Shown here in pieces: positions 12,502 to 30,020 of a stretch of 64,000 bases of DNA (position 1 is its first letter; every line of letters starts with the position of its first letter). Source of the stretch: an uncultured bacterium (GTDB lineage: Bacteria; Oederibacteriota; JAAXVQ01; JAUVAV01). A model generated the notes under the pieces. The model did not search any database, was not told the origin of the DNA, and was given only the letters and a program-made list of their open reading frames with translations. The stretch spans positions 198,273-262,272 of the forward strand of contig CAVQBK010000002.1 in NCBI GenBank assembly GCA_963710755.1. The letters run 5' to 3'. The position numbers and the translations under genes were made by a program.

Positions 12502-13226
12502 CGCTTCCTCCAAGCACGGTATTTAAGATACCACGGTGATACTTTGCGTTTAAAATCCATGAGTTGATCTGACCCCTTCACATAAATACGCCGCAGGGCC
12601 CAGGGATCCTCAGTCACTGAGGCTGTGCCCGGCGAAATAGCGCAGGCTGTCTCGTAGCCCGCCTTTTTTACTTCGGCACGGGCATTTTTATCCCAGGCAC
12701 CGTAAGGATAGCAAAAACTCTTAATCGCGCAGTCAAAAAGCTGCTCCAAGGTGATCTTGGAGCCTTTGACCTCATCCTTCAAAGCTATCGGCTCCATTTC
12801 CGGCAACGATTGATGGGTCAAGCCATGGGACCCCAGCTCCCAGCCGTCATCTACCAAGTGCTGACAGGATCTTCGGTCCATACAAGGCAGAATGGGTACT
12901 GACTGGTGCTGGTCCCAAAGATTGTGCTTGCCTAAAGCATGGGGCACTAAGAAAACGGTAGCTGTAAAGCCATGTTGGTCCAGGACGGGTTTGGCAAGAT
13001 CAGCCACGCTCTGATAGCCATCGTCAAAAGTGATGACCACCGGTCTCGACGGTAATTCATCCTTTTCTTGCAAAAATGCCGCCAGACGCTCCATGGAAAC
13101 CGTGTTATAACCCTTGCGTTTTAACCACGCCATTTGACGCTCAAAGGCCTTAATCGAGACCACCAGATCCGAGTGGACTGAGCCCTCAGCCTGGAGATGA
13201 TGGTACATTAAAATAGGTATATTCAT
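12498..13226 (-). CDS. Polysaccharide deacetylase (CE4/NodB family)
   Basis: IPILMYHH, VITFDDGY, GSHGLTH, FCYPYG. Confidence 0.92.
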   Translation of the reverse strand: MNIPILMYHHLQAEGSVHSDLVVSIKAFERQMAWLKRKGYNTVSMERLAAFLQEKDELPSRPVVITFDDGYQSVADLAKPVLDQHGFTATVFLVPHALGKHNLWDQHQSVPILPCMDRRSCQHLVDDGWELGSHGLTHQSLPEMEPIALKDEVKGSKITLEQLFDCAIKSFCYPYGAWDKNARAEVKKAGYETACAISPGTASVTEDPWALRRIYVKGSDQLMDFKRKVSPWYLKYRAWRKR

Positions 13227-14470: not shown

Positions 14471-15487
14471 TCAAGCCCGGGCCGGCAGCAGGCGCTGCAC
14501 TTGGGTCCATACCTGCTCCACGGTGATAGTTTGCATGCACTGCATATTTTTTAAAGGACATTCATTTTTAACGCAGGGAGCACAGCTCAACTGTTCGTTG
14601 CGGATATAAACGCTTTGGGATCCAAAGGGGCCGGTCACCCGGTGATCAGCCGCGCCTTGCAATACCAGCACCGGCACCTGCTGAGCATAGGCCATGTGCA
14701 TGGCACCTGAATCATTGCTGATGACCAAATCCAATTTCTCAATGACCGCCAGGCCCGTATCCAGATCGGTTTTGCCGGCCGTGATGATCACCTCGCCCCC
14801 GGCTTGTCGGGCTACCTGCTCAGCCAGGGGTAAATCAGCCGGTGACCCGAGCAGCACGACTTGCACCCCTTGGGCTTGAAGCAGGGTGGTCAGTTGGGCA
14901 TAACGTTCCCAGGGCCAGCGTCTGCTGGGCGCTACCGAGCCGGGGGCCAAGCCTACCCTCACCCCAGTGGTGGCCGGCAACATGGTCTCAGCCGCAGCCT
15001 GAGCATGGCTGGAAGGTGCAGCAGCAAAACCCCAGGCAGAGGCTGTTCCCGGATCGACCTTCAGGACACTCAACAGATGCAGATAACTTTGTGGCCTCGA
15101 CCCCTGGCGCAGCGCTTTGGTCCAAGACAGACCACGGGATAACAAAAGTGCCCGGCCTTGGGTACGGTAGCCAATGCGTTTGGGTATGGCAGCCCAAAAA
15201 GCCATCCAGGCGGCAGAGAAGGAATGAGGCAAAATCAGGACCACATCATACCGGCCCTGCCGCAGACGTTTGACTGTACTCAGCCAGGACCGTAACTTCC
15301 CGTGCCCATGGGAAGGTAATGGGATCACCGTGGATACCTCAGGCAGGTTCTCCCATACTGCGGCCACCCAGGGTTTGGCCAAAATGTGGAGATCACATTG
15401 GGGCCAGCGTTTTTTTATAGCCTTGGCCAAAGGGGTGGCCATGATGGCATCACCCACCCAGTTGGGGCTTCTTAACAATAGTTTCAT
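14471..15487 (-). CDS. waaF: LPS heptosyltransferase II (GT9, WaaF-like)
   Basis: N-terminal RSPNWVGDAIMA, typical of WaaF; SRRWP, SNDSGAMHMA, CAPC..ECP. Confidence 0.8.
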   Translation of the reverse strand: MKLLLRSPNWVGDAIMATPLAKAIKKRWPQCDLHILAKPWVAAVWENLPEVSTVIPLPSHGHGKLRSWLSTVKRLRQGRYDVVLILPHSFSAAWMAFWAAIPKRIGYRTQGRALLLSRGLSWTKALRQGSRPQSYLHLLSVLKVDPGTASAWGFAAAPSSHAQAAAETMLPATTGVRVGLAPGSVAPSRRWPWERYAQLTTLLQAQGVQVVLLGSPADLPLAEQVARQAGGEVIITAGKTDLDTGLAVIEKLDLVISNDSGAMHMAYAQQVPVLVLQGAADHRVTGPFGSQSVYIRNEQLSCAPCVKNECPLKNMQCMQTITVEQVWTQVQRLLPARA

Positions 15488-15721
15488 TTTTTTCCTATCT
15501 ATCCATTCCTAAACCGGCAAAGCCGGAATTAAATGCTATTTTTCATGCCAAGTTCGCGAAGGCGTCCCTTTATAATAACAGCTAACCAGTGGGGCAAAGA
15601 AAGATTAAAACCTTCAAAGGTTAGCTGCTTTATGTATCTTATGTTTATTTTGTTCTCCTTGCCGCCTTGACGTGAAATGATTTTTTTTAAGAAACTTATC
15701 CGACCTTGATCCAGCAGGAGG

Positions 15722-16525
15722 CTATACTTTTTTAGCACGTTTAAACAAGGTTCTTAAGACCGGCAGGAGCTGCCCCTGCTGCTGATAAGCTTCCCAGACC
15801 TTGAGTTCCGTCACCAGCACATAGAGCGCGGAAAAACTGTGAAACATCCACCCTTCCGCGCCATCCTTAAAACCGCCTTGAAACAAGAAGGCTTTGATAA
15901 ACCGGTGCAAGGGTTTGATCAATAAATCATACCCCGTGGGATGGTGCTGTTTTTCCAGTAACCGCTGCGCTTCCACGGTGGTGTAGGTGTTGAGTTTTTG
16001 GAAGTAATGGGCAATATTACGATAGGAATAATGCAGGATGTCGTGCTGCAGCCGCTCCACCGAGCCGTCCACCACAATCCCCCGATGCAGGCCGACTTCC
16101 GGATAACCGCCTTTTTGCCTTTTAAAAAAGCGCAGATGCAAATCAGGGTATAAATTGCCATGCTGAAGCCATTTGCCAAAGTGATAATTGCGAATGGGCA
16201 CCCAATAGCCGTCGGCAGCCGCAGGCTGTGCAGCCACGGTCTTGATCTCACGAGCCAGCTCCTCGGTCACCCGCTCATCAGCATCCAGAATAAAAACCCA
16301 ATCCCCGGTCAGGCAAGAGAGCCCAAATACACGGGCTGGTTCCGGATAGCCGTGATGACCTCGGAAGGTTTCAATACGCGCTCCGGCTTCGCGGGCCAAG
16401 GCCACCGTATTGTCCGTGCTTTCATTGTCCACCACCACCACTTCATCGGCAAAACTCAGGGACTTAAGGCAGGCCTCAATGTGGTAGGCTTCATTGTAAG
16501 TATGAACCACAGCGGAAATGGTCAT
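15722..16525 (-). CDS. Glycosyltransferase family 2 (WaaE/KdtX-like)
   Basis: TYNEA, VVDNESTDNT, WVFILDADE, KLNTYTT, GGFKDG. Confidence 0.88.
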   Translation of the reverse strand: MTISAVVHTYNEAYHIEACLKSLSFADEVVVVDNESTDNTVALAREAGARIETFRGHHGYPEPARVFGLSCLTGDWVFILDADERVTEELAREIKTVAAQPAAADGYWVPIRNYHFGKWLQHGNLYPDLHLRFFKRQKGGYPEVGLHRGIVVDGSVERLQHDILHYSYRNIAHYFQKLNTYTTVEAQRLLEKQHHPTGYDLLIKPLHRFIKAFLFQGGFKDGAEGWMFHSFSALYVLVTELKVWEAYQQQGQLLPVLRTLFKRAKKV

Positions 16526-17693
16526 GCCCGGCCTGTGATGGTCTTTAAATAAAACTGTTCATATGCTTTGACCATATCCTGCTTATTAAACATTTTGCGT
16601 ACTTGATATTTGGCGCTCTCTCCCATCTGCATCCTTTTAAGGGGATTGCAAATGAGGTGGTAAATGGCATCAGCCATAGCACTGGCATTTTGCGCAGGCA
16701 CCAACAGACCGGTTTCATTGTGTTTGACGATTTCCGGCACACCACCTGCATTGGTGGCCACCACCGGCAGGCCGTGGGCCATGGCCTCCACCAGCACCAG
16801 GCCAAAAGGTTCGCAATCACTGGGCAGCACGAAAATATCCAGCGCTGACATAAAGCGGCTCACCTCTTTCTGATAACCGGGAAAAAAGATAGCATTGAGG
16901 GCACGCAATACCCGGGCCCGCATGATGATGGTGGTGGAATAGGACGAATCCTGACGATAAGCCTTGCCCCCCAGTAAAAATTTCACACTGGGGTTCCAGC
17001 GCATGATCATTTCTCCAGCAGCAATGAATTGGGGGAAGCCTTTATTGGGCCGCCAAATGCCGGTGGTACCCACCACCGGCGCACCCACGTCAATGCCCAA
17101 CTCCTCGCGCAGGCTGGAAGGAAATTCTTTTTCCACTTCCACATTGGTGGAGCAATAGATGCGTTCGGTTTTGGCTTCATCAATACCGTAACTTTGCACC
17201 AATCGTTTCACATAATCGGAAATGCAGATAAAGGTATGGGTTTTATCGGCCATGCGGGCCATGTTGCGGGCCACGTATCCCGGCCGGTTCTTCATTTTCT
17301 CACTCATGGGGCCACCAGCCAAACCATGGGAATTTTGGCCCAATGACAGGGATAGGCCGCCAATTTGGCTTCCTGTAAACCACTGACATGAACCAACTTA
17401 AATGGAATCTGCTTGATATAGCGATAAAATTTCCAAAGCGCAGGAATGGACCGGTGGAGATTGCGCCATTTGGCTTTGGGAAAAGGGATGATTTTCGGCT
17501 CCAACCCTTTTTGCCTCAAGCTGTCCGCGAACAGGCCCTCTTCACAGCACACCACATAAGGCGTGAAGCGCGATCTGTCCAAGCCTTCGAGCAAGGTAAG
17601 CAAATGAATCTGTCCGCCGCCAATGGTCCCGTGGTAATTGACGAAAAGAATGGGATAGGGTTCCATGAGCTGCGTTTGGATGTTCTTGGACAT
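16522..17693 (-). CDS. Glycosyltransferase family 4, split by a 1-nt frameshift (sequence error or pseudogene)
   Basis: N-terminal ORF 17304-17693 (GGGQIHL) and C-terminal ORF (KGF, DIFVLPS..EPFGLVLVEAMA, GGVPEIV). Adding one C to the GGCCCC-ATG run near 17308 joins them into ~390 aa. Confidence 0.82.
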
Positions 17694-17786
17694 GGTAGAG
17701 TCCCTGCTTTTACTAAGGTGTGTCAGAGTTTAACAACAAACCGGCCTGGGATCAATGGAGAAATGACCCTCCCGGACGGTGGCGCG

Positions 17787-18944
17787 TCAAGGCCTGCCGA
17801 CTACCAGACAGGCGGCTTTTTGATCCTCCTCCAGGGCCAGGATCATCACTGTGCGCATCTCTAAAGACCGGACTTGACGGTCCAGCTGGACGTGGTCATA
17901 AATTTCGGGATGGCTTAAATTAACTGTAGGCGGCAGTTTCCCTTGTCTCATGGCTTCCAGAGCCACCACCGTGGCCATGGCACCAAAGGCATGGCCTGTC
18001 TCTCCCCAGGCGCCTTTCAGAGCCACCGCCGGCAACCGTGGGGGCAAAACTTTTTTAAGGGCTGCATTTTCCATGTCATCTTGTTGGACATACCCATTGG
18101 CTGCCAATAACAAGGCATCAATCTCCTGCGGTTGGCAGCGGGCCATGGCTAGGGCCTGGTTCATGGCTCTGACCGCAGCCTCCGGCCCATGGGCGCCATA
18201 TTGACTGGCCAAACCAAACCCCTGCAACTCACCCAACAAAGGCATACCCAAAGCCATGGCTTGCTGACGCTCCATTAATTGCATCAAGCCGCAACCTTCA
18301 CCTCCAGCTACCTGACCTGATGGAACATGGCTAAAAAGGGATGGGCGCCGGTCTTCCTTATTATACACAGCCAGACCTTGCAGTTCCTCCGGTGATTGCT
18401 GCTCTGTGGCCCCTGCCCATATTAGTCGGCTCCGTTTGGTGACCAGGGCCTGGGCCCCAAAAAACAGGGCTTCCAAACCAGCCGTAGGGCCTGACGACAA
18501 GGTCAGGCTCATAGCGGCAAGGCCATGTCTGATCGCGCTGTGAGCGGCTGGAGCATTGCTGGGCAGATTGATAAACATCTGGGGATGAATTAAATTGAGC
18601 TGTCTCTGATGAAGGGCATGGAGGATTTCATCAGGATAAGGATTGATCTTGCAGGCCACCACCATGCCCTGTTCCTGAAGGGGCACGGCCGTCGTTGGGC
18701 TTTCCCCAAGCCTTTGGGCCGCATAGCCGAGCATAAGGCTTTCTTTTTGAGCTTGCCGCCAGCCGGTGCCCTGCAATTGGGTTTTAATCTCAGTGGTCAC
18801 CAGGCCCGCAGGGAAGGTTACCGGTCCCAGAGACAGGGCCCTAAAGGCCTGCTCACCGGCAAAAAGCCTGTTGACCGCCTGCTCATGGTCAATCCCTAAT
18901 GAACAAATAATATGGGCATGGGTAATGACAATGCTGTCCTGCAT
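17787..18944 (-). CDS. Catalytically degenerate beta-ketoacyl synthase (chain-length-factor-like)
   Basis: KS-fold motifs (FINLPSNAPA, GEGCG, ALKGAWG, LPPTVN). The Cys-His-His positions read SGPTAG / AANG / GET, so all three residues are lost. Confidence 0.8.
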   Translation of the reverse strand: MQDSIVITHAHIICSLGIDHEQAVNRLFAGEQAFRALSLGPVTFPAGLVTTEIKTQLQGTGWRQAQKESLMLGYAAQRLGESPTTAVPLQEQGMVVACKINPYPDEILHALHQRQLNLIHPQMFINLPSNAPAAHSAIRHGLAAMSLTLSSGPTAGLEALFFGAQALVTKRSRLIWAGATEQQSPEELQGLAVYNKEDRRPSLFSHVPSGQVAGGEGCGLMQLMERQQAMALGMPLLGELQGFGLASQYGAHGPEAAVRAMNQALAMARCQPQEIDALLLAANGYVQQDDMENAALKKVLPPRLPAVALKGAWGETGHAFGAMATVVALEAMRQGKLPPTVNLSHPEIYDHVQLDRQVRSLEMRTVMILALEEDQKAACLVVGRP

Positions 18945-19023
18945 GGGATGCTCCGTAATTAGGCTGATACCTTCAACCGTTTCGACAAGCCCGGCGGCCG
19001 GAGTAAGCCAATGACTTATGAAC

Positions 19024-20256
19024 TTAGTTTTCCACAGCCTTAAACACTACCGCGCAATTGGCGCCGCCAAAGGCCGCGGCATTGGTCAAACACGTACGCA
19101 AGGTCCCTGGCCGCGGCTGTTTACTCACCACATTCACCGGACATTGGGGATCGGGCTGCTCATGATTAACGGTTGGCGGCAGCACCTGCTGGTTAAGACT
19201 GGTAATAGCCAGACAGGCTTCAATCAGGCCGGCAGCAGCAATAGTATGCCCGACAGCCGCTTTGGCCGCGGTTACAGGCACAGCACGACCGCCAAAAACC
19301 TGGACCAGGGCGTTGGCTTCAATCATATCATTGGCGATGGTGCCTGTCCCGTGGGCAAAAACACCATCCACCTCATCAGGACCGAGCCGGCTATCCTTCA
19401 AGGCCTGACTCATGGCTTGGACCATGCCCTGACCTTGCGGTTGCGGAGCCACCAGATGATAGGCATCATTGGACCAACCGTACCCCAGCACTTCCGCCTT
19501 GGCTTGGGCCTGTCGTCTTTTCAGACTGCTTTCAGTCTCCAAAAGCAAAGCCGCGCAGCCATCGCCCAGAACCAAGCCCTGACGGTGGCGATCAAAGGGT
19601 CTACAAAAATCAGGCGCCAAAACACGCAAACTGCAAAAACCTGAAAAAATGTAAGGCGAGGTAATATCCACACCTACACACAACGCTTGCGCGCTTAAGC
19701 CCTGGCGAAGATGGGCCACAGCACTGGCCAAAGCATACCCTCCGGCAGCACAGGCGTTGCTGTTGAGGACCAACCAGCCTTGCAGGCCCAAGGCCCGGGC
19801 GGTTTGTGTCAATACGCTGCTGGTTGGATAACCAGGCCGATGAACCGGCAAATTTTCCTCTTCACCAAGGGCAGGAGCGTCGTTTAGCCAGGTTTTCTGC
19901 AAGTGTTGGATATGGGCCAGAAAATCACCCTGAGTCGTGGCCAGAAATAATGGGAGCTGTGGTTGGCCGGCCTTACCGTCAGGCATTAATAAAGCCGCCT
20001 GCGCCAATACGCTGCGACTGCACGCCAGAGTTAATTGCACCGCCGGATCAAGGGCGTGGTTTTCTTCCGGAGTTAACTGCGGCCATTGGCTAAATGTTTT
20101 AATCTCGGCTGCCCGATGCATTGGCAACCACTGGGTATCAAAATGCTCGACCGGCGCAATTCCGCATTGCCCCTTCAGCAGGGCCTGCCATAGGCTATGC
20201 TGATCCCGTCCCAAGCTGGTAATACTTTCCAAAGCTGTAATAAATAGGCGTTCCAT
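19024..20256 (-). CDS. Beta-ketoacyl-ACP synthase (FabF-like, active)
   Basis: NACAAG, CRPFD...GLVLGDG, AHGTGT, GHT, AFGGAN: intact Cys-His-His triad. Confidence 0.92.
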   Translation of the reverse strand: MERLFITALESITSLGRDQHSLWQALLKGQCGIAPVEHFDTQWLPMHRAAEIKTFSQWPQLTPEENHALDPAVQLTLACSRSVLAQAALLMPDGKAGQPQLPLFLATTQGDFLAHIQHLQKTWLNDAPALGEEENLPVHRPGYPTSSVLTQTARALGLQGWLVLNSNACAAGGYALASAVAHLRQGLSAQALCVGVDITSPYIFSGFCSLRVLAPDFCRPFDRHRQGLVLGDGCAALLLETESSLKRRQAQAKAEVLGYGWSNDAYHLVAPQPQGQGMVQAMSQALKDSRLGPDEVDGVFAHGTGTIANDMIEANALVQVFGGRAVPVTAAKAAVGHTIAAAGLIEACLAITSLNQQVLPPTVNHEQPDPQCPVNVVSKQPRPGTLRTCLTNAAAFGGANCAVVFKAVEN

Positions 20257-20290
20257 CAGGGTCCTTTTTTCTTTGGTTCAGCAGCCCACA

Positions 20291-20716
20291 TTAGGTACGC
20301 TGATTAAGGCCGACAACTGTTTGCCCAAAATAAAAATCGCCCTCAGTTAGCAGCTCGTCGTTTGAGGTGACCTGCACATGGTAGGCGGCCTGATGCTCCA
20401 TGGCTTTAAGCAAGCGGGCCTCAATTATTAGTGCTTCCCCGGGATAGGCTGGCCGTTGCCAGTGCACATTATGCAGGCGGGTAAGAAAAGACTGATACTG
20501 AAAACCACCGCGGTATTCATCCAGCCGTCCGGCCGTTTGAGCCATGGTCTCCACCAACACAAACCAGGCTAAACAAGGGGCACCGGTCTGGTCCGGGTAT
20601 AAGGACCATTCATTGGTTGTCACCATTTTTATAACCCGGCAGGACGTTTGATCACGCGTCAAGAGGCGATCGATAAAATCAAAAGGATAGACTTGGGACT
20701 TGCCTTCCTGGGCCAT
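20291..20716 (-). CDS. FabZ/FabA-like hot-dog-fold dehydratase homolog
   Basis: YPFDFIDR, LVETMAQ, PAYPGE.L.I. The usual GHFP His is absent. Start moved to ATG 20716 to avoid overlapping the lnt-like gene. Confidence 0.75.
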   Translation of the reverse strand: MAQEGKSQVYPFDFIDRLLTRDQTSCRVIKMVTTNEWSLYPDQTGAPCLAWFVLVETMAQTAGRLDEYRGGFQYQSFLTRLHNVHWQRPAYPGEALIIEARLLKAMEHQAAYHVQVTSNDELLTEGDFYFGQTVVGLNQRT

Positions 20717-20744
20717 TAGCCGCTGCTTTCCTGCTCCGGGCAAA

Positions 20745-22421
20745 TCAGGCCGATGGCTTGGCCCGAAACCAGTGCCAAGCAGTAAGAGCGCTAAACAACA
20801 CCACAATAATCAGGCAGAGCCAGGCAAATACATCCCCCAGGCGGACATAGACCGACGTGCCCCGCATGGCCGGCATATCCGTGACCAGTACGCTTTTGGT
20901 GAGATAAGGCGTGGATTTGCGCACCAAGCCCAGGGCGTCAATAACCACCGTGCCGCCCATACTGGCATTTTTGGCCACCCAGCGTCTGGTTTCAATGGCC
21001 CGGAAACGGGCATTGATGACATGTAAATAATAATCGGTGGGTTTACGGAACCAATTGTTGGCGGAAGGACAGAAAAACATTTCCGCCCCTTTTTTAGCGG
21101 CTTCCCGGAAATAAGTTGAATAAAACACTTCAGCACAAACTTTAGGGCTCACTTTAACACCTGCCATATTAAAAAGCTTCTCTTCCTGCCCCCGGTTCAG
21201 ATCATAAATATCCTCCCTGGGCGAGGAGAGGGCGCGCAAATCCATTCCCCGGTGGGTCAGACGATGGTAACCATCACTCAGCATGGTCATCAGTCCGCGC
21301 ATGGGCATATATTCTCCAAAGGGTGTCAAGTAGCGCTTGATATAATAATTAAGCACATGGCCGTTTTGATCCACATAATACCAGACATTGTAATTACGAT
21401 GGTCGTCACTGATGGACAACAGGCCCAGCATGGCCGGCATATGCACTTCTTCAAAAATGGATTTCAGGTCATACCACAAATTAACCGATTCCGGCAAAAA
21501 ACCGGGTACAGCATTTTCCGTTAGCACCAACACATCGGCTTTTTGGCTTGCAGCTTCCAGGGCCATTTCCCTAAGCATGCGGGTGACCCGGTATTCCGTG
21601 CCCCGGTCCCAGCGTTTTTCCATGGATACATCGTGATTGGTCTGTAAAAAAGCCGGCTTGATCATGGTGTCGCTTTGCGCCTGTTGTGCAGCGGCCCTGC
21701 CGGCATCAAGGTTGCCGAACAAAACAAGCAGCGCCATGAGGGCCGTAAGCCCCAGGCCAAGTCTCATGGCCTTGTGCCGCTCGTCAGAAGTCAAGGGCTG
21801 GACTTTGGGCCTTAGCCCCAGCCAGACCCTGGCCTTTTCCCAGCCCAGCAGCTTGTCATAGATCACCAGCACGCCGGCGGCACTGGCCAGGAGTCCCAGA
21901 AAAGCCGGACCGTAAATACCGGTAATGGAGGCCATTTGTACCAAGGGTAAAATGCCGGCCATGGGAATGGCAAAAAAGATGCTCGGCGGCGGAGAGAACC
22001 ACAGGCTCTGGGACAAAGAAATGCGCACGAATTCCTGGGTTACCAACAAGGCGGGCATGACCAGGATAAATGCCCAGCGGTAGCGCTGGGTAATCCAACT
22101 GGCCAGCCATCCCGTGAGGCCATACATAAGAAAAAGGACCACGCCCAGGAGGCCGTAAATCATCCAGGCAATGGCCGGGAAATATTCCATTTGGGTAAGG
22201 AAAAACGCGACCGGCATCATGATGGCCAAGCCGCTGAGCCCGCACCACAAAAAGGCTTTGCGGCCGTGATAACGAAGGGTTAAAAACATGAAGGGCGCCA
22301 TGCATAATAAAAAAGAAAGGAGCGAAAACCAAGTGGGCTCAAGAAAGGTATTGTTGGGCCAGGCAAAATAAGCATACAGGGCTTGCAGTGCAAACATCAG
22401 AAATAAATAACGTTTCTTCAC
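20745..22421 (-). CDS. Apolipoprotein N-acyltransferase (Lnt)-like protein
   Basis: Multi-TM N-terminus, LVQMASITGIYG, nitrilase triad motifs LTENA / YIKRYLTPFGEYMP / VCAEV, RFRAIETRR, and a C-terminal YVRLGD plus TM. Confidence 0.88.
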   Translation of the reverse strand: MKKRYLFLMFALQALYAYFAWPNNTFLEPTWFSLLSFLLCMAPFMFLTLRYHGRKAFLWCGLSGLAIMMPVAFFLTQMEYFPAIAWMIYGLLGVVLFLMYGLTGWLASWITQRYRWAFILVMPALLVTQEFVRISLSQSLWFSPPPSIFFAIPMAGILPLVQMASITGIYGPAFLGLLASAAGVLVIYDKLLGWEKARVWLGLRPKVQPLTSDERHKAMRLGLGLTALMALLVLFGNLDAGRAAAQQAQSDTMIKPAFLQTNHDVSMEKRWDRGTEYRVTRMLREMALEAASQKADVLVLTENAVPGFLPESVNLWYDLKSIFEEVHMPAMLGLLSISDDHRNYNVWYYVDQNGHVLNYYIKRYLTPFGEYMPMRGLMTMLSDGYHRLTHRGMDLRALSSPREDIYDLNRGQEEKLFNMAGVKVSPKVCAEVFYSTYFREAAKKGAEMFFCPSANNWFRKPTDYYLHVINARFRAIETRRWVAKNASMGGTVVIDALGLVRKSTPYLTKSVLVTDMPAMRGTSVYVRLGDVFAWLCLIIVVLFSALTAWHWFRAKPSA

Positions 22422-22487
22422 GTTGCTCGTCCTTTCCTCGCCTGAAAAGCAGCATGGTTCTGCCGGCCAGGCTGATGGCGCCTCGTT

Positions 22488-22724
22488 TTATTGGATCTTC
22501 TTTTCGATCAACTCAACCAAATCCTGTAAGGTATTAACGGTTTTGAATTCCGCTTCTTTGATCTCAATTTTAAAGGTACGTTCCAGGGCCACCAGGATTT
22601 CCAAAATCATCACGGAATCTGCCTGCATGAATTCATTCAGATTTTTGTCCAGGCATATGTCTTCAACCGGCAACTCCAGAATCTCAGCAATAATGGTCGT
22701 TAATTGATCGGCAATAACGGACAT
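22488..22724 (-). CDS. Acyl carrier protein
   Basis: Small acidic protein with ADSVMILEILVALE (Ppant Ser) and F.I.I; GGGGAG RBS. Confidence 0.88.
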   Translation of the reverse strand: MSVIADQLTTIIAEILELPVEDICLDKNLNEFMQADSVMILEILVALERTFKIEIKEAEFKTVNTLQDLVELIEKKIQ

Positions 22725-22800
22725 GCCCACACTCCCCTGGAGGTTTGGTCCTTTTAGGAACCCTTAATACCATACACTAGCAAAAGTCCAAATGCAATCC

Positions 22801-23559
22801 TTAAGCCTTGGCCTGCTTCAGCAGTTCCCAATGCTTGCTGTGCTTGATGAGGGTATTGTAACTGGACAACAAACAGAGCACCAGTCCCGGAAACCCGTCA
22901 CGCCAACCGGCTTTGAGCAAATACATTTTTAAAAAAGTCCACAGGGGATCACCCCACCAGCGCAGGCGGGTGAGCTTTTTGCCTCTGGCCATACGGTCCT
23001 GCGCGGCCAAGCTGGTGTAATGATTAAGCCGCTCCATATAAGCAGTAAGATCGGGATAGGAATAATGGTTGAGCAGTGCCTTGAGCCGGCCCATCTGCCC
23101 CTGCACCAGCAGGCGCTCATGCACTGCCTTTTCTTCGAAGCGCCCCTGACCGGCTTTGAAAAGACGCAGCTGATAATCAGGGGCCCAACCGCAGCCTTTG
23201 ATGGCGCGGTTAAGAAAAAAATTGCGCCGTGACAGCCAAAAGCCGGTACACCCTTTGGGATTGTCCACACGTTGCCGGATTTCCCGGGCCAGCTCAGGAG
23301 TGACGATTTCATCGGCATCAATGGACAAAACCCAACCATCATGAACCTCGCCCACCAGATGGTTCTTGGTGATACCATACCCTTCCCAGGCCACGGTTTT
23401 GACCAGGGCGCCCTGCGCTTCTGCCAATGGCACTGTTTCATCAGCAGACCCGTTCTCACCCACCACCACCTGATCACAAAAGGATAAGGCCTGCACGCAT
23501 TGGGCAATGGTGCGCGCTGCATTTTTGGCAATGATGATAGCCGTTATTTTTTCGGACAT
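22801..23559 (-). CDS. Glycosyltransferase family 2 (WaaE/KdtX-like)
   Basis: WEGYG..KN, WVLSIDADE, VHE, LNHYS, GWRDG. Confidence 0.88.
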   Translation of the reverse strand: MSEKITAIIIAKNAARTIAQCVQALSFCDQVVVGENGSADETVPLAEAQGALVKTVAWEGYGITKNHLVGEVHDGWVLSIDADEIVTPELAREIRQRVDNPKGCTGFWLSRRNFFLNRAIKGCGWAPDYQLRLFKAGQGRFEEKAVHERLLVQGQMGRLKALLNHYSYPDLTAYMERLNHYTSLAAQDRMARGKKLTRLRWWGDPLWTFLKMYLLKAGWRDGFPGLVLCLLSSYNTLIKHSKHWELLKQAKA

Positions 23560-23696
23560 AGGGCAATCCCTCGTTTGAAAATAGGATCCTTTAACCTTTT
23601 TTTATTGCAGGTAACCGGCTGCTTGTCCGGCGCCTGCCGGCATAACCATGCCTATTAAATAGGGGCAAATTAAAACTGCCGTTTACGCCAAAGAAA

Positions 23697-24713
23697 CTAA
23701 TTGTTTTTTGTCACAGAGCCCTGCTCCAATTGCTCCATTGCCTCCAGCACCTGCTCCACCGTAATGCCGGTCATGCAGGCATGATGACCCAAGGGGCATT
23801 GTTTGCTGCCGTGGACCGCGCAAGGCCGGCAAGGCAGCTCCACACTAAGCACGCGGCAGCGAGCGCTGCGCGGCATAAAACCAAAGGCTCCTACCGTGGG
23901 ACCAAATAGTGCCACTGCTTTGGTGCCGCTGGCCAGTCCCAGATGCAAGGGGCCTGAATCATTACTGATCAGGACCATGGCCTGCGACAGCAGCACCGCC
24001 AATTTGGTGAGCGAGGTTTTGCCGATCAAGGACAGCACGGGTTTGGAGGTTTGGGCCTTGATGCGCTGGCCAATGGGAAATTCATCATGATCCCCAATCA
24101 ACACCACCTGAACCCCGCGTTCCGTCAGACGATCGGCCAGAGTGATAAACCGTGTTTCCGGCCAGCGTTTGGTTGCCCACTTGGCGCCCGGTGCCAGCAC
24201 TGCCACATCACGGTTAAGGTCCAGGCCATCGGCCTGCAACTGGTCCAGATAGGCTTCCCGGTCAATACCATCGAAAGAAAGCCTGGGCTCGCGAGAGACC
24301 AAGGCATATCCCACCTGCCGGGCGGCTTCACCATACCAGTCTACCACTGAAGATCGCTCATCCAAAAGCGGCCAGCGGTGCCACCAACAGCGCCTGCCCT
24401 GAGGCCGCACCAATAGCCTTCTGGCCAAGGCATGCTTGGGGTAGTGGACCAGGCTTTTTCTCCGTATATGACGCAGCACCTTGGCCGAACGTCCGGTTCG
24501 GTGCAGATCGAGCACGACATCAAAGGTATACTTGGGTTTTTGATTGGGTAACAGAATATGATCCGCCCCCGGCAATATGCTGCCCAAAGCTTTATAGGCA
24601 TCCTGCACCATCAGGGTGACTTCATCCCCGGCCGCGTGCACAGCCTCCAATACCGGTTGGGTTAAAATAATATCTCCCAACGAACTTAAGCGGGCGACCA
24701 GAATTTTTTTCAT
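23697..24713 (-). CDS. Glycosyltransferase family 9
   Basis: RLSSLGDIIL, APGAKWATKRWP, SNDSGPLHL, CRPC..HG...CP. Confidence 0.9.
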   Translation of the reverse strand: MKKILVARLSSLGDIILTQPVLEAVHAAGDEVTLMVQDAYKALGSILPGADHILLPNQKPKYTFDVVLDLHRTGRSAKVLRHIRRKSLVHYPKHALARRLLVRPQGRRCWWHRWPLLDERSSVVDWYGEAARQVGYALVSREPRLSFDGIDREAYLDQLQADGLDLNRDVAVLAPGAKWATKRWPETRFITLADRLTERGVQVVLIGDHDEFPIGQRIKAQTSKPVLSLIGKTSLTKLAVLLSQAMVLISNDSGPLHLGLASGTKAVALFGPTVGAFGFMPRSARCRVLSVELPCRPCAVHGSKQCPLGHHACMTGITVEQVLEAMEQLEQGSVTKNN

Positions 24714-25765
24714 AGGTGTGAGGGTCCTTTAGCCAGGGGCTGCAGAAATGTTTGCCAAGGTGTTTCTTGAGACGGTGTTTGCACCTGGAAGCGAACCGCC
24801 AGGGCCCAGGCTTCGATGGAACTGGCAGCAGGCCAGTTAACCTTAACCATATCTTTGGTGGTCATCACCACAGCTGCATGATGACGTCTGGCCAATTTTT
24901 CCCATTGGCGGAGTTGGTCCGGGCGGTACCAAAAATGATCGGGATATCGCTGGTGATGACAAACCACGGCCCCGCAGGCTTCCAGGGTATTGATAAAAGC
25001 CTGCGGTTTAGCTATACCCGACACGGCCACCACCCGTTGACCCTTCAGTACCTCCACAGGCCTGACGGTGTTGGTTTTAACATCCACCAGTTGGTAAGCC
25101 TTGTGACTGGCGTGATAAACCGGTTTGCTCTGGCCAATAGTCCGCCGGATCAGCTGCTCCAGAGGCTGGGGATCAACCTGGTCGCTGCGGGTAATGATGA
25201 TCATATCCGCATCCGCCATGGCTGTAAGCGGTTCACGGTAAGGACCGGCCGGCAGCACCCTGCCCGACAGCGCTTGTTTATCGCTGGCATCCATAAGCAA
25301 AATCTCCAAATCGCGAAACAGTTGGAAGCGCCGTTGAAAGCCGTCATCAAGAATCAAGATCTGGCAACCTAATTGCTCCACCGCCAGCATCCCGGTTTGG
25401 AAGCGATCCCGCCCCACCACCACAGCTGCCTGGCCCAGGAAACGCTGGGCCAGGGCATAAGGTTCATCACCACCGGCCCGGGGATCAGCCCGCAACGTTT
25501 GCCCATCAGATACCACTACCAAGGGGTCGCGGCTATGACGCCGGTAACCGCGCGACAGGATGGCTGGTTTGAGGCCGGCCTTAACCATCTGATCGCAAAC
25601 CCAGGCCACGGCTTCAGTCTTACCTGTGCCGCCCACGGTCAGATTGCCTATGGAAATCACAGGAACAGGACATTTGCGCGGAGGTTGTTGTTGGGCTTTG
25701 ACCTGCTGACGTTCAAGACCCCAGGTGTAAAGCCAGCTGAGCGGCAGCAGGAAGGGATAGTTCAT
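24710..25765 (-). CDS. lpxK: Tetraacyldisaccharide 4'-kinase
   Basis: SIGNLTVGGTGKT, SRGY, GDEP, LDDGFQ, PAGPYRE, YPDH. Confidence 0.95.
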   Translation of the reverse strand: MNYPFLLPLSWLYTWGLERQQVKAQQQPPRKCPVPVISIGNLTVGGTGKTEAVAWVCDQMVKAGLKPAILSRGYRRHSRDPLVVVSDGQTLRADPRAGGDEPYALAQRFLGQAAVVVGRDRFQTGMLAVEQLGCQILILDDGFQRRFQLFRDLEILLMDASDKQALSGRVLPAGPYREPLTAMADADMIIITRSDQVDPQPLEQLIRRTIGQSKPVYHASHKAYQLVDVKTNTVRPVEVLKGQRVVAVSGIAKPQAFINTLEACGAVVCHHQRYPDHFWYRPDQLRQWEKLARRHHAAVVMTTKDMVKVNWPAASSIEAWALAVRFQVQTPSQETPWQTFLQPLAKGPSHL

Positions 25766-27135
25766 CGCACCAGCCAGTCATCATCGAGCAAGGTTTCTTT
25801 TTGCCGGTTGTAATTGTTGTTCTTCACCGACTCCTGGCGCCAGCTCTTGACTTCCAAAGACCAGCGCTTGATCAACATTAACTTGAGCAGCATCTCCGCG
25901 GTCTGCATGGCACTACCTTGGGTACTGGCTACAGCGCCATGAGCCCGACGACCCATGGCTTTGGCTTCATGAGGATGGGTCAGCAACCGGATAACCGCTT
26001 GCGCCAATTGTTCGCCATCTTCCACTTGCAGCGCACCTTTAGCCTGGAGTAGCATTTCCGTGGATTTGGCAAAGTGATTCATATGCGGACCTACCACCAC
26101 CGGCACACCCTGCAAAGCCGGTTCCAGGGGATTGTGCCCGCCAAAGGGGGCCAGGGACCCGCCCACCAAGGCTACTTGAGCACAGCCATACAAGGCGGCC
26201 AATTCGCCCATAGTGTCAAGTACGATCACTGGAAAATCAATCATCTCTTCTTCCAGCCGGCTGCGGTAGGTAAAGGCTTGCTGTTTTTCCATGAGCAGCC
26301 GCTCGATTTCTTTAAGGCGGTTCAAGTGGCGCGGGGCCAAAATCAATACAGCTTCAGGCATCGCTTGGCGGACCTGTTTGAAAGCGTCAATAATCTGGGC
26401 TTCCTCCCCGGGCCGGGTACTGCCGGCCACCCATACCGGTTGATCCGGTTTAAGGCGCAACAGCCGGCGAAAGTCCACTGCGCTTTGCGCAGTAGTCTGA
26501 TCGGATTTTACATTGCTCACAATTTTAATGCGCTGGGGGTTGGCGCCCAGGGCAATGAAACGCTGGGCATCGGATTCGGATTGAATGGTCAGAAGTTCAA
26601 ATTTCTCCAAAGTACGCCGCATCAAATTCCCCAACAGACGATAGGGTTTTACGTTTTTTTCCGACAAACGTCCGTTCACGAGAGCCAATTGGCTGCCGCT
26701 GCTTTTAACCGTTAAAATGAGATTGGGCCACAATTCCGTCTCTGCCACCACCATCAAAGCTGGTTGAATCTGATGCACCACTTTCCTGACTGCTGCCGGA
26801 TAGTCCAAGGGCGCCAGGAAGGCTACATCCACTTCCGGAATTTTCCGGGCTACATGGTCCAGGCCGCTGGTGGTCATCGTGGTCACCACAATGGAGAGCG
26901 CGGCATTACGCTGTTTTAAATGGCGCACAATGGGCGCCACCACCGACAGCTCCCCCACGCTGGCGGCGTGGAACCAGAGTCGGGGTTCAGGCAACTGCTT
27001 AAGACGGGCCAACTTGTCCTTGGGTATGTATCCAAAACGGTTGGTCAGACCCGTGCGTATTTTTTTACTGATTAGCAGAAAAGGTAGAAAGGGCGTGACC
27101 ACCGCCGTAGCCATCCCCCATAGAATATTATACAT
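25762..27135 (-). CDS. waaA: Kdo transferase
   Basis: WFHAASVGE, PLD, ETELWPN, NGRLS, AGST..GEE, APRH, GGHNPLEPA. Confidence 0.95.
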   Translation of the reverse strand: MYNILWGMATAVVTPFLPFLLISKKIRTGLTNRFGYIPKDKLARLKQLPEPRLWFHAASVGELSVVAPIVRHLKQRNAALSIVVTTMTTSGLDHVARKIPEVDVAFLAPLDYPAAVRKVVHQIQPALMVVAETELWPNLILTVKSSGSQLALVNGRLSEKNVKPYRLLGNLMRRTLEKFELLTIQSESDAQRFIALGANPQRIKIVSNVKSDQTTAQSAVDFRRLLRLKPDQPVWVAGSTRPGEEAQIIDAFKQVRQAMPEAVLILAPRHLNRLKEIERLLMEKQQAFTYRSRLEEEMIDFPVIVLDTMGELAALYGCAQVALVGGSLAPFGGHNPLEPALQGVPVVVGPHMNHFAKSTEMLLQAKGALQVEDGEQLAQAVIRLLTHPHEAKAMGRRAHGAVASTQGSAMQTAEMLLKLMLIKRWSLEVKSWRQESVKNNNYNRQKETLLDDDWLVR

Positions 27136-27150
27136 GATGGTTATGCTCCC

Positions 27151-28296
27151 TCATTCCTGACCTGCGGTGGCCAGTACCACCCGGGCCGCACGTTCAGCCG
27201 CACCGGGGCTACCCAGGCGTGCTCTGACCTTGGCCCAACCCTGACGCTGCTTGTCAGCCAGGTTGGGATTGGCTAAAAGGGCCTGGGCCTGGGGCGCCAC
27301 CCGCTCAGGCGTGAATTCATGCTGTAAAAATTCCGGGGCAATTTTTTCACCAGCCGTTAAATTGGCCAGCCCAAAATAAGGCAACCTGACAAACAACCGC
27401 GCCAGCCCATAACTAAGCGGATGCATACGATAGGCGATCAGCATGGGACAGTTGAGAATAGCAGTCTCCAGCGTCGCAGTGCCCGAGGAAATAATGGTCA
27501 GATCCGCCGCCGCCCGCGCTGCCAAAGGCCGGTCTTCCACGATCTCGGCCTGCAGGTCTTCCTGATCCAGAATCTCCTTAACCCTGGCCTTGGACACTGT
27601 CCTGGCCAGCGGTATAAAAAATTTGATTTGCGGCCATGCTGGTTGCAAAAGTTTGGCGGTGCGCGCCATGATGGGCAGCAGCAATTCGATTTCCTGACGG
27701 CGGCTGCCTGGTGCCAGCGCCACCAACGGGCCGGCTTTGCCTTGCAATAATTGAGCCCGTCTGAGCGCTGGATCGATTTCCGGTTTCACGGCATCCACCA
27801 GGGGATGACCCACAAAAGTCACCGGAATGCCTGCCTCTTGGTAAAGCGTTTCCTCAAAAGGCAAAATCACCAGCATGTGATCCACGATTTTTTTCATGGT
27901 GTGAATCCGGCCCTTGCGCCAGGCCCATATCTGGGGGCTGATGTAATACACCACCGGGATACCCAGCCTTTTGGCTTTAGCGGCAATCTTAAAATTCAAA
28001 TCCGGAAAATCAGTAAGCACTGCCACGTCCGGTTTTTCCGTTTGCAATAGCTTTTCAGCCAATTTCAATATCTTAAAAAAAGTACCGATTTTTTTCAGGG
28101 CTTCGGCCACACCGATTACAGCCATGGACACCAGATCATACTTAATATCCACGCCGGCCTTGGCCATCAGGCTGCCGCCAAAACCAAAGAACGTGCTTTG
28201 AGGGGCAAGGTGCTTGATGGCCGCCACCAGGTCAGCGGCATGTTGGTCGCCGGAGGCTTCGCCGGCTACGATCATGATTTTAAGGGATGGATTCAT
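27151..28296 (-). CDS. lpxB: Lipid A disaccharide synthase
   Basis: AGEASGD, YISPQIWAWR, ILPFE, FVGHPL, PGSR, SGTATLE. Confidence 0.96.
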   Translation of the reverse strand: MNPSLKIMIVAGEASGDQHAADLVAAIKHLAPQSTFFGFGGSLMAKAGVDIKYDLVSMAVIGVAEALKKIGTFFKILKLAEKLLQTEKPDVAVLTDFPDLNFKIAAKAKRLGIPVVYYISPQIWAWRKGRIHTMKKIVDHMLVILPFEETLYQEAGIPVTFVGHPLVDAVKPEIDPALRRAQLLQGKAGPLVALAPGSRRQEIELLLPIMARTAKLLQPAWPQIKFFIPLARTVSKARVKEILDQEDLQAEIVEDRPLAARAAADLTIISSGTATLETAILNCPMLIAYRMHPLSYGLARLFVRLPYFGLANLTAGEKIAPEFLQHEFTPERVAPQAQALLANPNLADKQRQGWAKVRARLGSPGAAERAARVVLATAGQE

Positions 28297-29276
28297 TGGG
28301 CTGTATAATTCTGCTCTCTGATCTGCCTGGTGATCTCCAGAGCCACGGCCAGGGCTTCCCGGCCATGCTCAGCCGTGACTTGCGGCGGCTCACCGGACCG
28401 GACCGCGTGTATAAAAGCGCTTAATTCTATCATGAGCGGTTCTTTCTTGCCAAAAGTTACTTTTTCACGGTCAATGAGGTTAAGCAGATTGCCTTCATCC
28501 TGGGGCCGGTCCTTTTTCAGTTTAAAAATGACCAGTTCCTGTTTTTGATAATCAATACTGATATAACTGTCGGGTGAGAAAATACGAATCTTGCGCTTGG
28601 TCTCCACGCTGGCGCGCGACGCGCTAAGGTTGGCCACACAGCCGTTGGCCAGGGTGAGCCGGGCATTGGCAATATCTTCATGGGCCGTCAATATCTTGAC
28701 CCCCACGGCTTCCACCTGCTTGACCCCGGCGCCCACCAAATCCATGATAATGTCCAGGTCATGGATCATCAGATCCAGCACGACGCCGATATCATTGTTG
28801 CGTTTGGAAAACGGTCCCAGGCGATGGACTTCAATGAACCTGGGGTCTCTGATGATCTTCTTCAATTCCTGAATGGCTTCATTGAAGCGTTCGATGTGGC
28901 CGATTTGAAGGCAGCAGTGATTGGCCTGGGCCAGAGCGATGAGTTCATCGGCCTGGGCCACCGTGGTGGTCATGGGCTTTTCCAGCAGCACATGCACTTT
29001 TTTTTCCAGAAACGTCTTGGCCACCTCAAAGTGATGGGCTGTGGGCACCACCACGGAAACCACATCCACCTTGTCCACCAGTTCCTGGTAGGCAGTAGTA
29101 TAGGCACATTTGCATTTGTGGGCTACAGCCTTGGCCTGATGTTCATTGACATCCGCCACACCTACCAGCTCCACGCCGGGCAGCTGGGTGTAGACCCGGG
29201 CATGATGCTGGCCCAGGCTGCCGACGCCAATAACGGCGGCTCTAATCAGCTTGTTTTCAGATATTTCCCCGACCAT
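28293..29276 (-). CDS. Gfo/Idh/MocA oxidoreductase, GnnA-like (putative UDP-GlcNAc 3-dehydrogenase)
   Basis: GVGSLGQHHAR, LEKP, GHIERFN, DLMIHDLD, SASR. Its stop overlaps the lpxB start. ATG 29276 follows GGAGG. Confidence 0.85.
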   Translation of the reverse strand: MVGEISENKLIRAAVIGVGSLGQHHARVYTQLPGVELVGVADVNEHQAKAVAHKCKCAYTTAYQELVDKVDVVSVVVPTAHHFEVAKTFLEKKVHVLLEKPMTTTVAQADELIALAQANHCCLQIGHIERFNEAIQELKKIIRDPRFIEVHRLGPFSKRNNDIGVVLDLMIHDLDIIMDLVGAGVKQVEAVGVKILTAHEDIANARLTLANGCVANLSASRASVETKRKIRIFSPDSYISIDYQKQELVIFKLKKDRPQDEGNLLNLIDREKVTFGKKEPLMIELSAFIHAVRSGEPPQVTAEHGREALAVALEITRQIREQNYTAQ

Positions 29277-29308
29277 GCGATCCTCCAAAAGGTCAATAAC
29301 AAGGCCCG

Positions 29309-29337
29309 ATTATCCGCGTCCAATGCTTGCCTGTCAA
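29309..29337 (-). promoter_or_regulatory. sigma70-type promoter of the LPS operon
   Basis: Minus strand TTGACA-17 nt-GATAAT. Confidence 0.55.
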
Positions 29338-29461
29338 GTTCATTCCCGGGTTACGCAGCACAAACGGACAACCTCTCGTCATCCTTGTGTTGATAAAACA
29401 CCGGCACTATGATTATAATCAAAAAGATTCAAGTTTTTCACTTAGGTTATAAAAGAACGCC

Positions 29462-29960: not shown

Positions 29961-30020
29961 TTTTTCCGGCCCATTCCCCGGTCCCGGTAGCCGGCACCGG
30001 CAGCACAAGGTTAATTATTT

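Follow-up and report, generated by a model that had tools for sequence, protein, structure and literature searches.

The stretch of DNA considered here, called the window throughout, is 64,000 nucleotides of contig CAVQBK010000002.1 (assembly GCA_963710755.1), from an uncultured bacterium of the phylum Oederibacteriota. On its minus strand, the lipopolysaccharide (LPS) operon is interrupted by a cassette of five co-directional open reading frames (ORFs), which span 17787-22730 with intergenic gaps of 28-79 nucleotides. In the order in which they are read, these encode a dedicated acyl carrier protein (ACP; PF00550, 22488-22730, 80 amino acids), a divergent membrane acyltransferase of the Lnt family with LNT_N and CN_hydrolase domains, named LntL here (20745-22421, 558 amino acids), a FabZ-like hot-dog protein (20291-20716, 141 amino acids), a FabF-like ketosynthase (KS) with its Cys-His-His residues intact, named KSa (19024-20256, 410 amino acids), and a ketosynthase homologue without these residues, named KSb (17787-18944, 385 amino acids). 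The insertion is bounded upstream by a GT2 glycosyltransferase, a gene of the core operon (22801-23559, minus strand), and downstream by a GT4 glycosyltransferase, which lies in two overlapping frames (16522-17693, minus strand). The best reading of this arrangement is a repurposed Lnt that is fed by a private acyl-chain factory. In its fuller form, the reading takes the five genes as the larger half of a lineage-specific, two-locus envelope-lipidation system with a phospholipid shuttle, and to this form a little less than an even chance is given.

The complete co-directional run reads GnnA-like, LpxB, KdtA, LpxK, GT9 and GT2, followed by the cassette, and then by GT4, GT2, GT9, GT9, deacetylase and a WaaL-GT9 gene. 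The five genes between two LPS glycosyltransferases, as described by the initial annotation, are thus confirmed as minus-strand ORFs. It had also stated that the window holds neither a ketoreductase (KR) nor an LpxL-type acyltransferase. Indeed, among the 51 window proteins scanned, none matched a short-chain dehydrogenase/reductase or KR family, and none matched a lipid A acyltransferase family (LpxL/LpxXL), for which the rest of the genome was not searched.

A divergent branch of the Lnt family

LntL passes the cut-off of the curated lnt family (149.4 bits on TIGR00546, cut-off 132.9) and carries the Lnt domains PF20154 (LNT_N) and PF00795 (CN_hydrolase). Its residues E302, K362 and C429 fall on the Glu-Lys-Cys triad of the solved P. 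aeruginosa Lnt in the alignment, as well as with those of the genome's own Lnts, and the triad first read as intact is therefore so. The genome of the window (G000; 3.44 Mb, 13 contigs, 98% complete) has three Lnt-family genes in all. The two ordinary ones score 264.6 bits (contig C1) and 257.2 bits (C4), while the LntL of the window is the weakest at 150.1 bits. A housekeeping fabF (634 bits, above its cut-off) is adjoined by acpP on contig C6, with a fabG-like gene just beyond, and a housekeeping fabZ (199 bits) is present as well. LntL is hence not the sole lnt, and every housekeeping counterpart that the initial annotation had proposed to look for is found. Because the genome has two better-scoring Lnts along with its housekeeping acpP, fabF and fabZ, LntL is, as judged from sequence, a specialised paralog belonging to a divergent subfamily of the Lnt family, and it is not to be named 'lnt'.

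The size of this subfamily was estimated with a profile made from 10 LntL sequences, which was run against 1.84 billion representative proteins. At E<=0.001, the search returned 22,632 Lnt-family proteins, of which only 15 scored above 300 bits, the next one being at 198.6. A word-index search gave three proteins at E<=1e-40 among 8000 scored candidates, too few to size the clade. Another search, that of genome contigs with the LntL alignment, led to 80 loci which were all rejected as ordinary Lnt (20-31% identity), since the back-translated motifs are common to all Lnts. In a FastTree phylogeny of 73 Lnt-family rows, all 25 LntL rows are monophyletic, with an SH-like support of 1.0 and a stem of 1.75, and LntL is thereby set apart from housekeeping Lnt. 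Five of the database representatives stand at zero tree distance from proteins of the relatives' loci that were already in the set. The separate clade, the long stem and the drop in score from above 300 to below 200 bits all speak against orthology with the housekeeping Lnt, and relatives that are devoid of LntL still carry an ordinary Lnt.

The members of the clade also share a signature. The distance from the FGEY motif to the catalytic Cys is 58-60 residues in 25 of 25 LntL sequences, as against mostly 40-45 in 48 ordinary Lnt, and around 17 extra residues are found ahead of this Cys. Directly after the Cys stands D, T or A in 21 of the 25 (Ala in the window), whereas 46 of the 48 ordinary proteins have F, Y or W there. 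This position corresponds to Tyr388 of E. coli Lnt, which is reported to be essential. The E-K-C triad itself is intact in 23 of the 25 clade members. By analogy with Lnt, the N-acylation of diacylglyceryl-Cys lipoproteins by LntL, with phospholipid as donor, is a putative activity. The two members with a broken triad, P0016 and P0017, no longer have the catalytic Glu and Cys, in whose place stand G/N and P/D; they form a sister pair beside the subclade that holds the LntL of the window, and may, from these substitutions, be pseudo-enzymes. It was considered that they could be the extra tandem LntL copies of the related genomes G007 and G009, but this was ruled out, as they are 28-29% identical and the tandem copies have retained E, K and C.

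The predicted layout of LntL consists of seven transmembrane helices, a periplasmic CN-hydrolase domain and one more transmembrane helix. In hydropathy analysis, its hydrophobic segments share alignment columns with those of the two ordinary Lnts in this genome. By the positive-inside pattern, the loops rich in K/R at 50-56, 100-117 and 193-217 put the CN-hydrolase domain outside the cytoplasm. AlphaFold2, given an alignment of 73 rows, yields a model of LntL with a mean pLDDT of 94 and a pTM of 0.93. The best Foldseek match to this model is E. coli Lnt (8b0l; E 2.3e-21, TMq 0.73, TMt 0.79, 17% identity); full-length Lnt structures as a whole match at TMq 0.70-0.73 with 16-19% identity, and the soluble nitrilases come next at a TMq of about 0.36. 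Since both the topology and the fold are those of Lnt, the active site of LntL should, on this modelling, face the periplasm.

The acyl-chain enzymes

The ACP matches PF00550 at E 9.4e-14 and has the Asp-Ser motif for phosphopantetheine attachment. It scores below the cut-offs of all NCBIfam ACP models, and is one of the three stand-alone ACP genes in the genome. The third of these lies at C2:166249-168455, beside a FabF-like KS (393 bits) and a weak KS-like ORF. ACP domains are also seen at C4:194708-201786, where two ORFs of about 2100 amino acids carry KS domains and three tandem ACP domains.

The longest ORF of the hot-dog protein (20291-20806) starts at a TTG codon at 20806 and overlaps LntL, while the ATG at 20716 gives the 141 amino acids that are typical of the orthologues. 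No Pfam match was found for the window protein at E<=0.001. Its score on the FabZ model TIGR01750 is 46 bits, below the cut-off of 155.15, against 199.4 bits for the genome's own FabZ. The relation to FabZ is seen in the FabZ structures of the PDB, which match at E 2.5e-7, and in a FabA-like domain, which seven of the eight orthologues carry (E 8e-7 at best). When aligned with the genome's own FabZ, none of the eight orthologues has the catalytic His (Asp in the window), and the catalytic Glu is kept in all eight (in 9 of 9 with the genome's own FabZ). Thus, of the FabZ-like protein in the initial annotation, the fold stands, but since the catalytic His of FabZ is missing, the protein is probably not a stand-alone dehydratase. 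Its neighbours in the ESM Atlas fall in clusters where 21-40% of the members carry an ApeP-like family, which serves as a lead only.

Both KSa and KSb have the N- and C-terminal ketoacyl-synthase domains. KSa keeps Cys-His-His, and KSb has Pro, Ala and Glu in the same columns, in accordance with the first description of an active KS next to one that lacks all catalytic residues. The loss of Cys, His and His holds in 11 of 11 KSb-type sequences, and so does the adjacency of an intact and an inactive partner (11 of 11 pairs). In the column of the active-site Cys, the KSb of the window has Pro and the others have F, N, H, Y or W, but never Gln. A Gln in place of the active-site Cys is the mark of the chain-length factor (CLF) of aromatic type II polyketide synthases. 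The best solved relative of KSa is 9s5h_B, part of a two-KS heteromer (232 bits, just above the FabF structures at 218 bits), which, as a guess, may be the anammox heterodimer. ApeO:ApeC (6qsp) and Iga11:Iga12 are also among the PDB matches, 6qsp being a weaker match than FabF. The closest analogues that have been studied are CLF-like KS pairs from type II systems of the fatty-acid or the highly reducing type.

The complex of the two ketosynthases, which the initial annotation had suggested modelling, is predicted as a heterodimer with an ipSAE of 0.95, the best control being at 0.00. Three runs agree in at least 91% of the contacts, and the partner has a pLDDT of 90. The ipSAE mark used is reached by 116 of 157 solved complexes and by 2 of 215 mismatched pairs, and this pass may reflect the likeness of the pair to solved KS dimers. 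KSb is thus predicted from the model to be a CLF-like partner of KSa. In the KS tree, the pair of the window is fast-evolving, and its KSb groups weakly (80/72) with the genome's own second pair on contig C3. This placement fits a duplication within this lineage.

Linkage in relatives and the move into the LPS operon

It was observed that LntL is restricted to a small group of bacteria. Matches of the LntL type (at least 255 bits) occur in 10 of 41 relatives, G000 included, and all the others are at or below 102 bits, the level of ordinary Lnt. Within the phylum, LntL is present in 10 of 99 genomes, which all belong to one order and there to two families (6 of 10 genomes in the family of the window, 3 of 4 in the second one and none of 84 elsewhere). 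Members of the KSb family are present in 11 of the 99, namely the LntL-bearing genomes and G006, whose LntL fragment sits at a contig end.

Among the nine relatives with LntL, the hot-dog protein and a PlsC-type acyltransferase are encoded at the same locus in all nine, the KS pair in eight, a KR in eight and the ACP in seven. The misses are due to contig ends or, for the KR of G001, to a second locus. The conserved module therefore also includes a PlsC-type acyltransferase (PF01553) and a FabG-like reductase, and LntL is present in one to three tandem copies per locus. The fullest forms are ACP-LntL-KSa-KSb-LntL-hot-dog-PlsC-KSa-KSb-KR-CinA-DUF1844 in G003, ACP-KSa-KSb-LntL-LntL-LntL-KSa-KSb-hot-dog-PlsC-KR-CinA-DUF1844 in G007 and ACP-LntL-LntL-hot-dog-PlsC-KSa-KSb-KR-CinA-DUF1844 in G009. 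G005 has LntL-hot-dog-PlsC-KSa-KSb-KR-CinA-DUF1844, with the ACP and another KSb 8.6 kb upstream. Shorter versions are seen in G012 (ACP-LntL-hot-dog-PlsC-KSa-KSb-KR), G014 (LntL-PlsC-ACP-hot-dog-KSa-KSb-KR), G013 (LntL-LntL-hot-dog-PlsC-KSa-KSb-KR, where the contig ends) and G004 (LntL-hot-dog-PlsC-KR on a short contig, with the KS pair on another). The neighbourhood of ACP, Lnt and two KS genes, whose conservation had been left to be checked, is thus kept in LntL-bearing relatives wherever the contig allows.

Two other observations concern these loci. In G014 alone, LntL is directly preceded by a gene for a B12-binding radical SAM protein (L027 7312-8865). A third LntL paralog of G003 (L031, contig C27, 8832-10487) is located between ORFs of 2853 and 3111 amino acids; the idea that these are flanking megasynthases was rejected, as neither ORF has any Pfam match.

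In G000, the rest of the module is found on contig C3 (573278-578597), where a PlsC-like gene, a second KSa/KSb pair and a FabG-like KR are followed by cinA. The PlsC-like protein has the HX4D motif, and the KR reaches 264.6 bits on TIGR01830 and is above the cut-off of NF009466. No ACP, LntL or hot-dog gene occurs at this locus. Within the genome, the ACP, LntL and hot-dog genes of the module are present only in the window, the KR only at C3, and the PlsC-like gene at C3. By gene content, therefore, the two loci depend on each other. The initial reading could not see the PlsC-type enzyme and the KR because in this genome they lie at the second locus. About 2 kb upstream of the PlsC-KS-KS-KR genes, a PAP2 phosphatase and a polysaccharide deacetylase are located among pyrimidine-biosynthesis genes (L112 7609-9334).

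The comparison with relatives also tells how the cassette came to its present place. Since GT2 is directly followed by GT4 in the otherwise collinear LPS operons of G003 and G005, the cassette is, on comparative grounds, an insertion in the genus of the window (g1), and its LPS location is recent and confined to that genus. The sister species G001 has ACP-LntL-hot-dog-PlsC-KSa-KSb at the same spot, together with a second locus like that of G000. The cassette of G000 equals that of G001 minus PlsC. As G001 keeps a PlsC-like gene between the hot-dog gene and KSa, which are 34 nucleotides apart in the window, the window copy of PlsC has, by this comparison, been deleted. Gene order likewise marks the cinA-side site as the ancestral position, at which G000 kept PlsC-KS-KS-KR as its second locus. 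An LPS-operon location is thus seen in 2 of the 10 LntL-bearing genomes (G000 and G001). No match to an LPS protein of the window was found within the 20-kb cluster loci of G003, G005, G007, G009, G012 and G014, where the neighbours of the cluster are cinA, DUF1844, ribosomal or SPFH genes. The short contig of G004 has no LPS gene beside the cluster, and the flanks of G013 are unassembled. The GT2-GT4 junction holds unrelated inserts in two relatives, of 7.5 kb in G007 (L120 7700-15100; including a 2003-amino-acid ORF on the opposite strand) and of 13.7 kb in G009 (L123 1030-14738). For this reason, the junction may simply tolerate insertions.

A promoter/terminator scan of 15000-30500 returned 19 + 18 sites against 12.7 + 20.7 expected from shuffles and could not be used to delimit the operon. 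On the minus strand, the site most like a promoter (11 of 12) is at 29337-29309, upstream of the GnnA-like gene. No RNA dataset matched 17700-23600, the sole match being a DNA run from a soil metagenome, which contained 0.19 of the sampled words.

A few features of the surrounding DNA may be recorded here. The GT4 gene beside the cassette is split into an N domain (17304-17693, 129 amino acids) and a C domain (16522-17343, 273 amino acids), which are in different frames and overlap by about 40 nucleotides. The same split, with an overlap of about 35 nucleotides and an identical frame offset, occurs in five other genomes (54-88% amino acid identity), and because of this recurrence it is read as a conserved split gene or a programmed frameshift, and not as an error. 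Further downstream, a 761-amino-acid fusion (10228-12513, minus strand) joins an O-antigen-ligase (Wzy_C) domain to a GT9 heptosyltransferase-like domain; it is 85% identical in G001 over residues 1-572, up to the contig end. Just upstream of the LPS operon, the region 30000-40000 has a low GC content (0.38-0.46 against about 0.52). Its genes include a PMT_2/ArnT-like glycosyltransferase (30470-31897), a Fic/DUF4172 gene, two nucleotidyltransferase-fold genes, a DUF4143 gene and several ORFs without a family. A fragment of a Mutator-family transposase is present at 44645-45019, and at 59795-63451 (minus strand) there is an ORF of 1218 amino acids that no Pfam family matches, where the DNA has a strong AT skew (-0.27, -0.21).

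A proposed phospholipid shuttle and its rivals

The proposed mechanism starts from the gene content, the catalytic residues, the predicted topology and fold, the linkage and the co-occurrence described above, while each of its chemical steps, as well as the nature of the chain and its acceptor, is conjectural. The KSa/KSb pair and the KR, aided by the hot-dog protein and by the housekeeping FabZ and FabI, would assemble, on the dedicated ACP, an acyl chain whose length or functionality is defined. The PlsC-type enzyme would then shift this chain from the ACP to a (lyso)glycerolipid at the cytoplasmic face. Once the lipid has flipped, Cys429 of LntL would accept the chain on the periplasmic side, in the way that Lnt takes the sn-1 chain from a phospholipid. 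Finally, LntL would hand the chain to an amine acceptor and so regenerate the lyso-lipid for reloading. A shuttle is proposed because LntL is predicted to face the periplasm and a PlsC-type acyltransferase belongs to the conserved module. The initial annotation had noted that either a relay from ACP to lipid or an altered topology would be needed. For the relay, the PlsC-type enzyme is now a candidate, whereas an altered topology is not supported, as LntL is predicted to keep that of Lnt.

Such a shuttle mirrors the lysophospholipid cycle of Lnt, LplT and Aas in E. coli, in which a periplasm-facing transacylase is combined with an acyl-ACP-dependent acyltransferase of the PlsC family that reloads the lyso-lipid. 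Here, unlike in that cycle, the parts share a single gene cluster with a dedicated ACP and with enzymes that build the chain, and neither an LplT-like flippase nor an acyl-ACP synthetase domain is seen. The match of the PlsC-like proteins to the model of the Aas-type acyl-ACP-phospholipid acyltransferase is also weak (E 1.5e-10, far below the cut-off).

As regards the acceptor, a subset of lipoproteins leads the candidates, though only tentatively. An aminolipid or phospholipid head group is somewhat doubtful, and an amino sugar on LPS is rather more so, to the same degree as something else altogether. It is an unlikely thought that LntL is the first enzyme of the Lnt family with a non-lipoprotein acceptor, that is, a periplasmic N-acyltransferase which decorates an envelope amine with a custom chain, built on the dedicated ACP and ferried across the inner membrane on a PlsC-loaded phospholipid. 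Acylation outside the cytoplasm would then have a supply line of its own. If so, the amine could, with no better likelihood, be for example an amino sugar of the LPS core or lipid A in this genus and an aminolipid head group in the relatives.

Several points weigh against the shuttle and the system around it. The aromatic residue after the catalytic Cys is replaced in LntL, and the reaction may thus differ from N-acylation. The hot-dog protein is without the dehydratase His, so that the genes do not tell the chemistry of the chain. In the clusters (the loci of six relatives and the C3 locus), neither an enoyl reductase nor a flippase or LplT-like gene is seen. Lnt uses the sn-1 chain, and the classical target of PlsC-type enzymes is sn-2; for the shuttle to work, the PlsC-type enzyme would thus have to be specific for sn-1 like Aas, which is beyond what weak family matches can show. 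The co-occurrence of LntL and KSb rests on related genomes of one order, and hence on few independent events. As the promoter/terminator scan is not above shuffled sequence, the co-transcription of the cassette with the LPS genes is only putative.

Other explanations of the same genes have been weighed, and each is held to be improbable to its own degree. One of them ties the cassette to LPS: the genes would make a chain like the very-long-chain fatty acid (VLCFA) of rhizobia, and LntL, working from the periplasmic side, would join it through an amide bond to an amino sugar in lipid A or the core, in analogy to PagP, which uses phospholipid as a donor. In G000 and G001 the cassette does lie within the LpxB-KdtA-LpxK-glycosyltransferase operon, with short gaps and on the same strand; the operon holds a deacetylase (12498-13226) and the GnnA-like dehydrogenase, and the PMT_2/ArnT-like glycosyltransferase, which acts in the periplasm, is encoded just upstream (30470-31897). 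Nevertheless, only two of the ten LntL-bearing genomes show the cassette in the LPS operon, the GT2-GT4 junction accepts unrelated inserts as well, the deacetylase is without an N-terminal signal sequence (by eye), and the window has no LpxL-family transferase. The link to lipid A or the core, which the initial annotation had put forward, is thus reduced to a minority reading that applies where the cassette sits in the LPS operon, in this genus only, and it is considered unlikely. Just as unlikely is a remodelling of membrane lipids, in which LntL would be a periplasm-facing sn-1 deacylase or transacylase that yields lyso-lipid and the PlsC-type enzyme would re-acylate this with the ACP-borne chain to give a tailored phospholipid. 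It draws on a gene set identical to that of the shuttle and explains the constant pairing of PlsC with LntL; the altered residue beside the Cys and the longer loop could also fit the loss of a site for a protein acceptor. It gives no reason, however, for one to three tandem copies of LntL, all with intact triads, and a hydrolase would not need the full membrane domain of Lnt, which is conserved.

Still less is expected of plain redundancy, by which LntL would be a third lipoprotein N-acyltransferase and its neighbourhood of fatty-acid genes would be without functional meaning. LntL does pass the curated lnt model and has the fold and the triad of Lnt, and multiple Lnt homologues are described for actinobacteria in the accessible part of one report (PMC3850990). 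Yet the presence of LntL follows that of KSb (10 against 11 of 99 genomes), the genes stayed together on their move to a new chromosomal site, and the long stem and the subfamily signature set LntL apart. The least probable of all, and very much so, is a direct transfer, whereby acyl-ACP would pass its chain straight to LntL with the catalytic domain facing the cytoplasm. The ACP gene is immediately upstream of LntL in five of the eight loci that show both (the window, G001, G003, G009 and G012), but the hydrophobic segments and K/R-rich loops put the CN-hydrolase domain outside, and the full-length model superposes on Lnt, membrane domain included. The phospholipid shuttle is thus preferred over these alternatives, with the reservations given above.

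The system can further be compared with others whose parts it resembles. With the Lnt of E. coli and P. aeruginosa (PDB 8b0l, 5n6h, 5n6m), LntL shares the LNT_N and CN-hydrolase domains, the Glu-Lys-Cys triad, the FGEY motif and the predicted topology of eight transmembrane helices. Unlike these, it is only 16-19% identical to them, is additional to two ordinary Lnts, is clustered with ACP, KS/CLF, PlsC and KR genes, and often occurs in two or three tandem copies. In the rhizobial acpXL-fabZXL-fabF2XL-fabF1XL-lpxXL cluster, a transferase of the LpxL family at the cytoplasmic face uses acyl-ACP directly to put a VLCFA on lipid A. The parallel drawn by the initial annotation stands for the gene content, as a dedicated ACP, a FabZ-like gene and two KS genes lie alongside lipid A genes in both. 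It fails at the transferase, which is here of the Lnt type with no LpxL-type enzyme in the window, at the hot-dog protein, which lacks the His of FabZ, and at the LPS context, which is found in one genus only.

The core of the anammox 'ladderane' cluster, as far as the available text of the two sources goes, comprises amxACP, amxFabZ and the pair amxFabF2/amxFabFmut (PMC10139942; bioRxiv 10.64898/2026.05.19.726425), and the heterodimer of this pair can decarboxylate malonyl-ACP and in this way prime on its own ACP (bioRxiv 10.64898/2026.05.19.726425). The likeness lies in the two-KS heteromer 9s5h as the best solved relative of KSa and in the match of the hot-dog protein to amxFabZ structures (E 4e-7). 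According to the available text, amxFabZ keeps its catalytic His, unlike the hot-dog protein of the window, and a search of PMC10139942 and bioRxiv 10.64898/2026.05.19.726425 for the word 'acyltransferase' had no hit and brought up no Lnt- or PlsC-type gene. A specific anammox relationship was rejected, as the similarity is only at the general level of FabF (KSa, 232 against 218 bits) and FabZ (hot-dog protein, E 4e-7).

Aryl polyene (APE) clusters, with the KS/CLF pair ApeO:ApeC, the hot-dog proteins ApeI and ApeP, the KR ApeQ, the ACPs ApeE/F and an LPLAT enzyme, likewise combine a type II KS/CLF pair, a KR, a hot-dog protein, an ACP and a glycerolipid acyltransferase for an envelope lipid. 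The APE lipid APEL carries a conjugated C26:5 acyl chain on glycerol C-2 of a glycerol-phosphate lipid, according to the available part of its description (bioRxiv 10.1101/2020.12.19.423268). By analogy, and to the extent of that text, APEL would be a precedent for a KS/CLF-type cluster that loads a special chain onto glycerol via LPLAT-type enzymes. The adenylating starter enzyme, the methyltransferase, the MMPL exporter and the LolA-like protein of APE clusters are absent from the Pfam matches of 44 flanking proteins in six relatives and of 16 proteins at C3. A full-text literature search found no report of Lnt with APE clusters. The cassette thus shares its gene content with the rhizobial, anammox and APE systems, without their defining transferases, exporters or radical enzymes. 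In full-text searches, whose coverage leaves out most subscription journals, no published Lnt homologue coupled to ACP or KS genes was found.

What emerges is a real, conserved and lineage-restricted system that is built from known parts, and it points to a route, not described so far, by which a custom lipid chain would be joined to the cell envelope. On the periplasmic side, neither acyl-ACP nor acyl-CoA is available for acylation, and Lnt and PagP take the chains that bulk phospholipids offer. If a transacylase of the Lnt type is coupled to an ACP, a KS/CLF pair, a reductase and a glycerolipid acyltransferase of its own, the cell could programme the chain that is delivered outside the cytoplasm. 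It would also be the second pathway of the fatty-acid type, after that of anammox bacteria, with a CLF-like inactive KS. The LntL clade is small and known from uncultured bacteria only, and its direct ecological weight is thus probably modest, its value being mechanistic. The two cooperating loci, one half of which moved to the LPS operon, constitute a natural experiment in which the genes travel as a functional unit, and, if the reading is true, the Lnt family extends beyond lipoprotein maturation.

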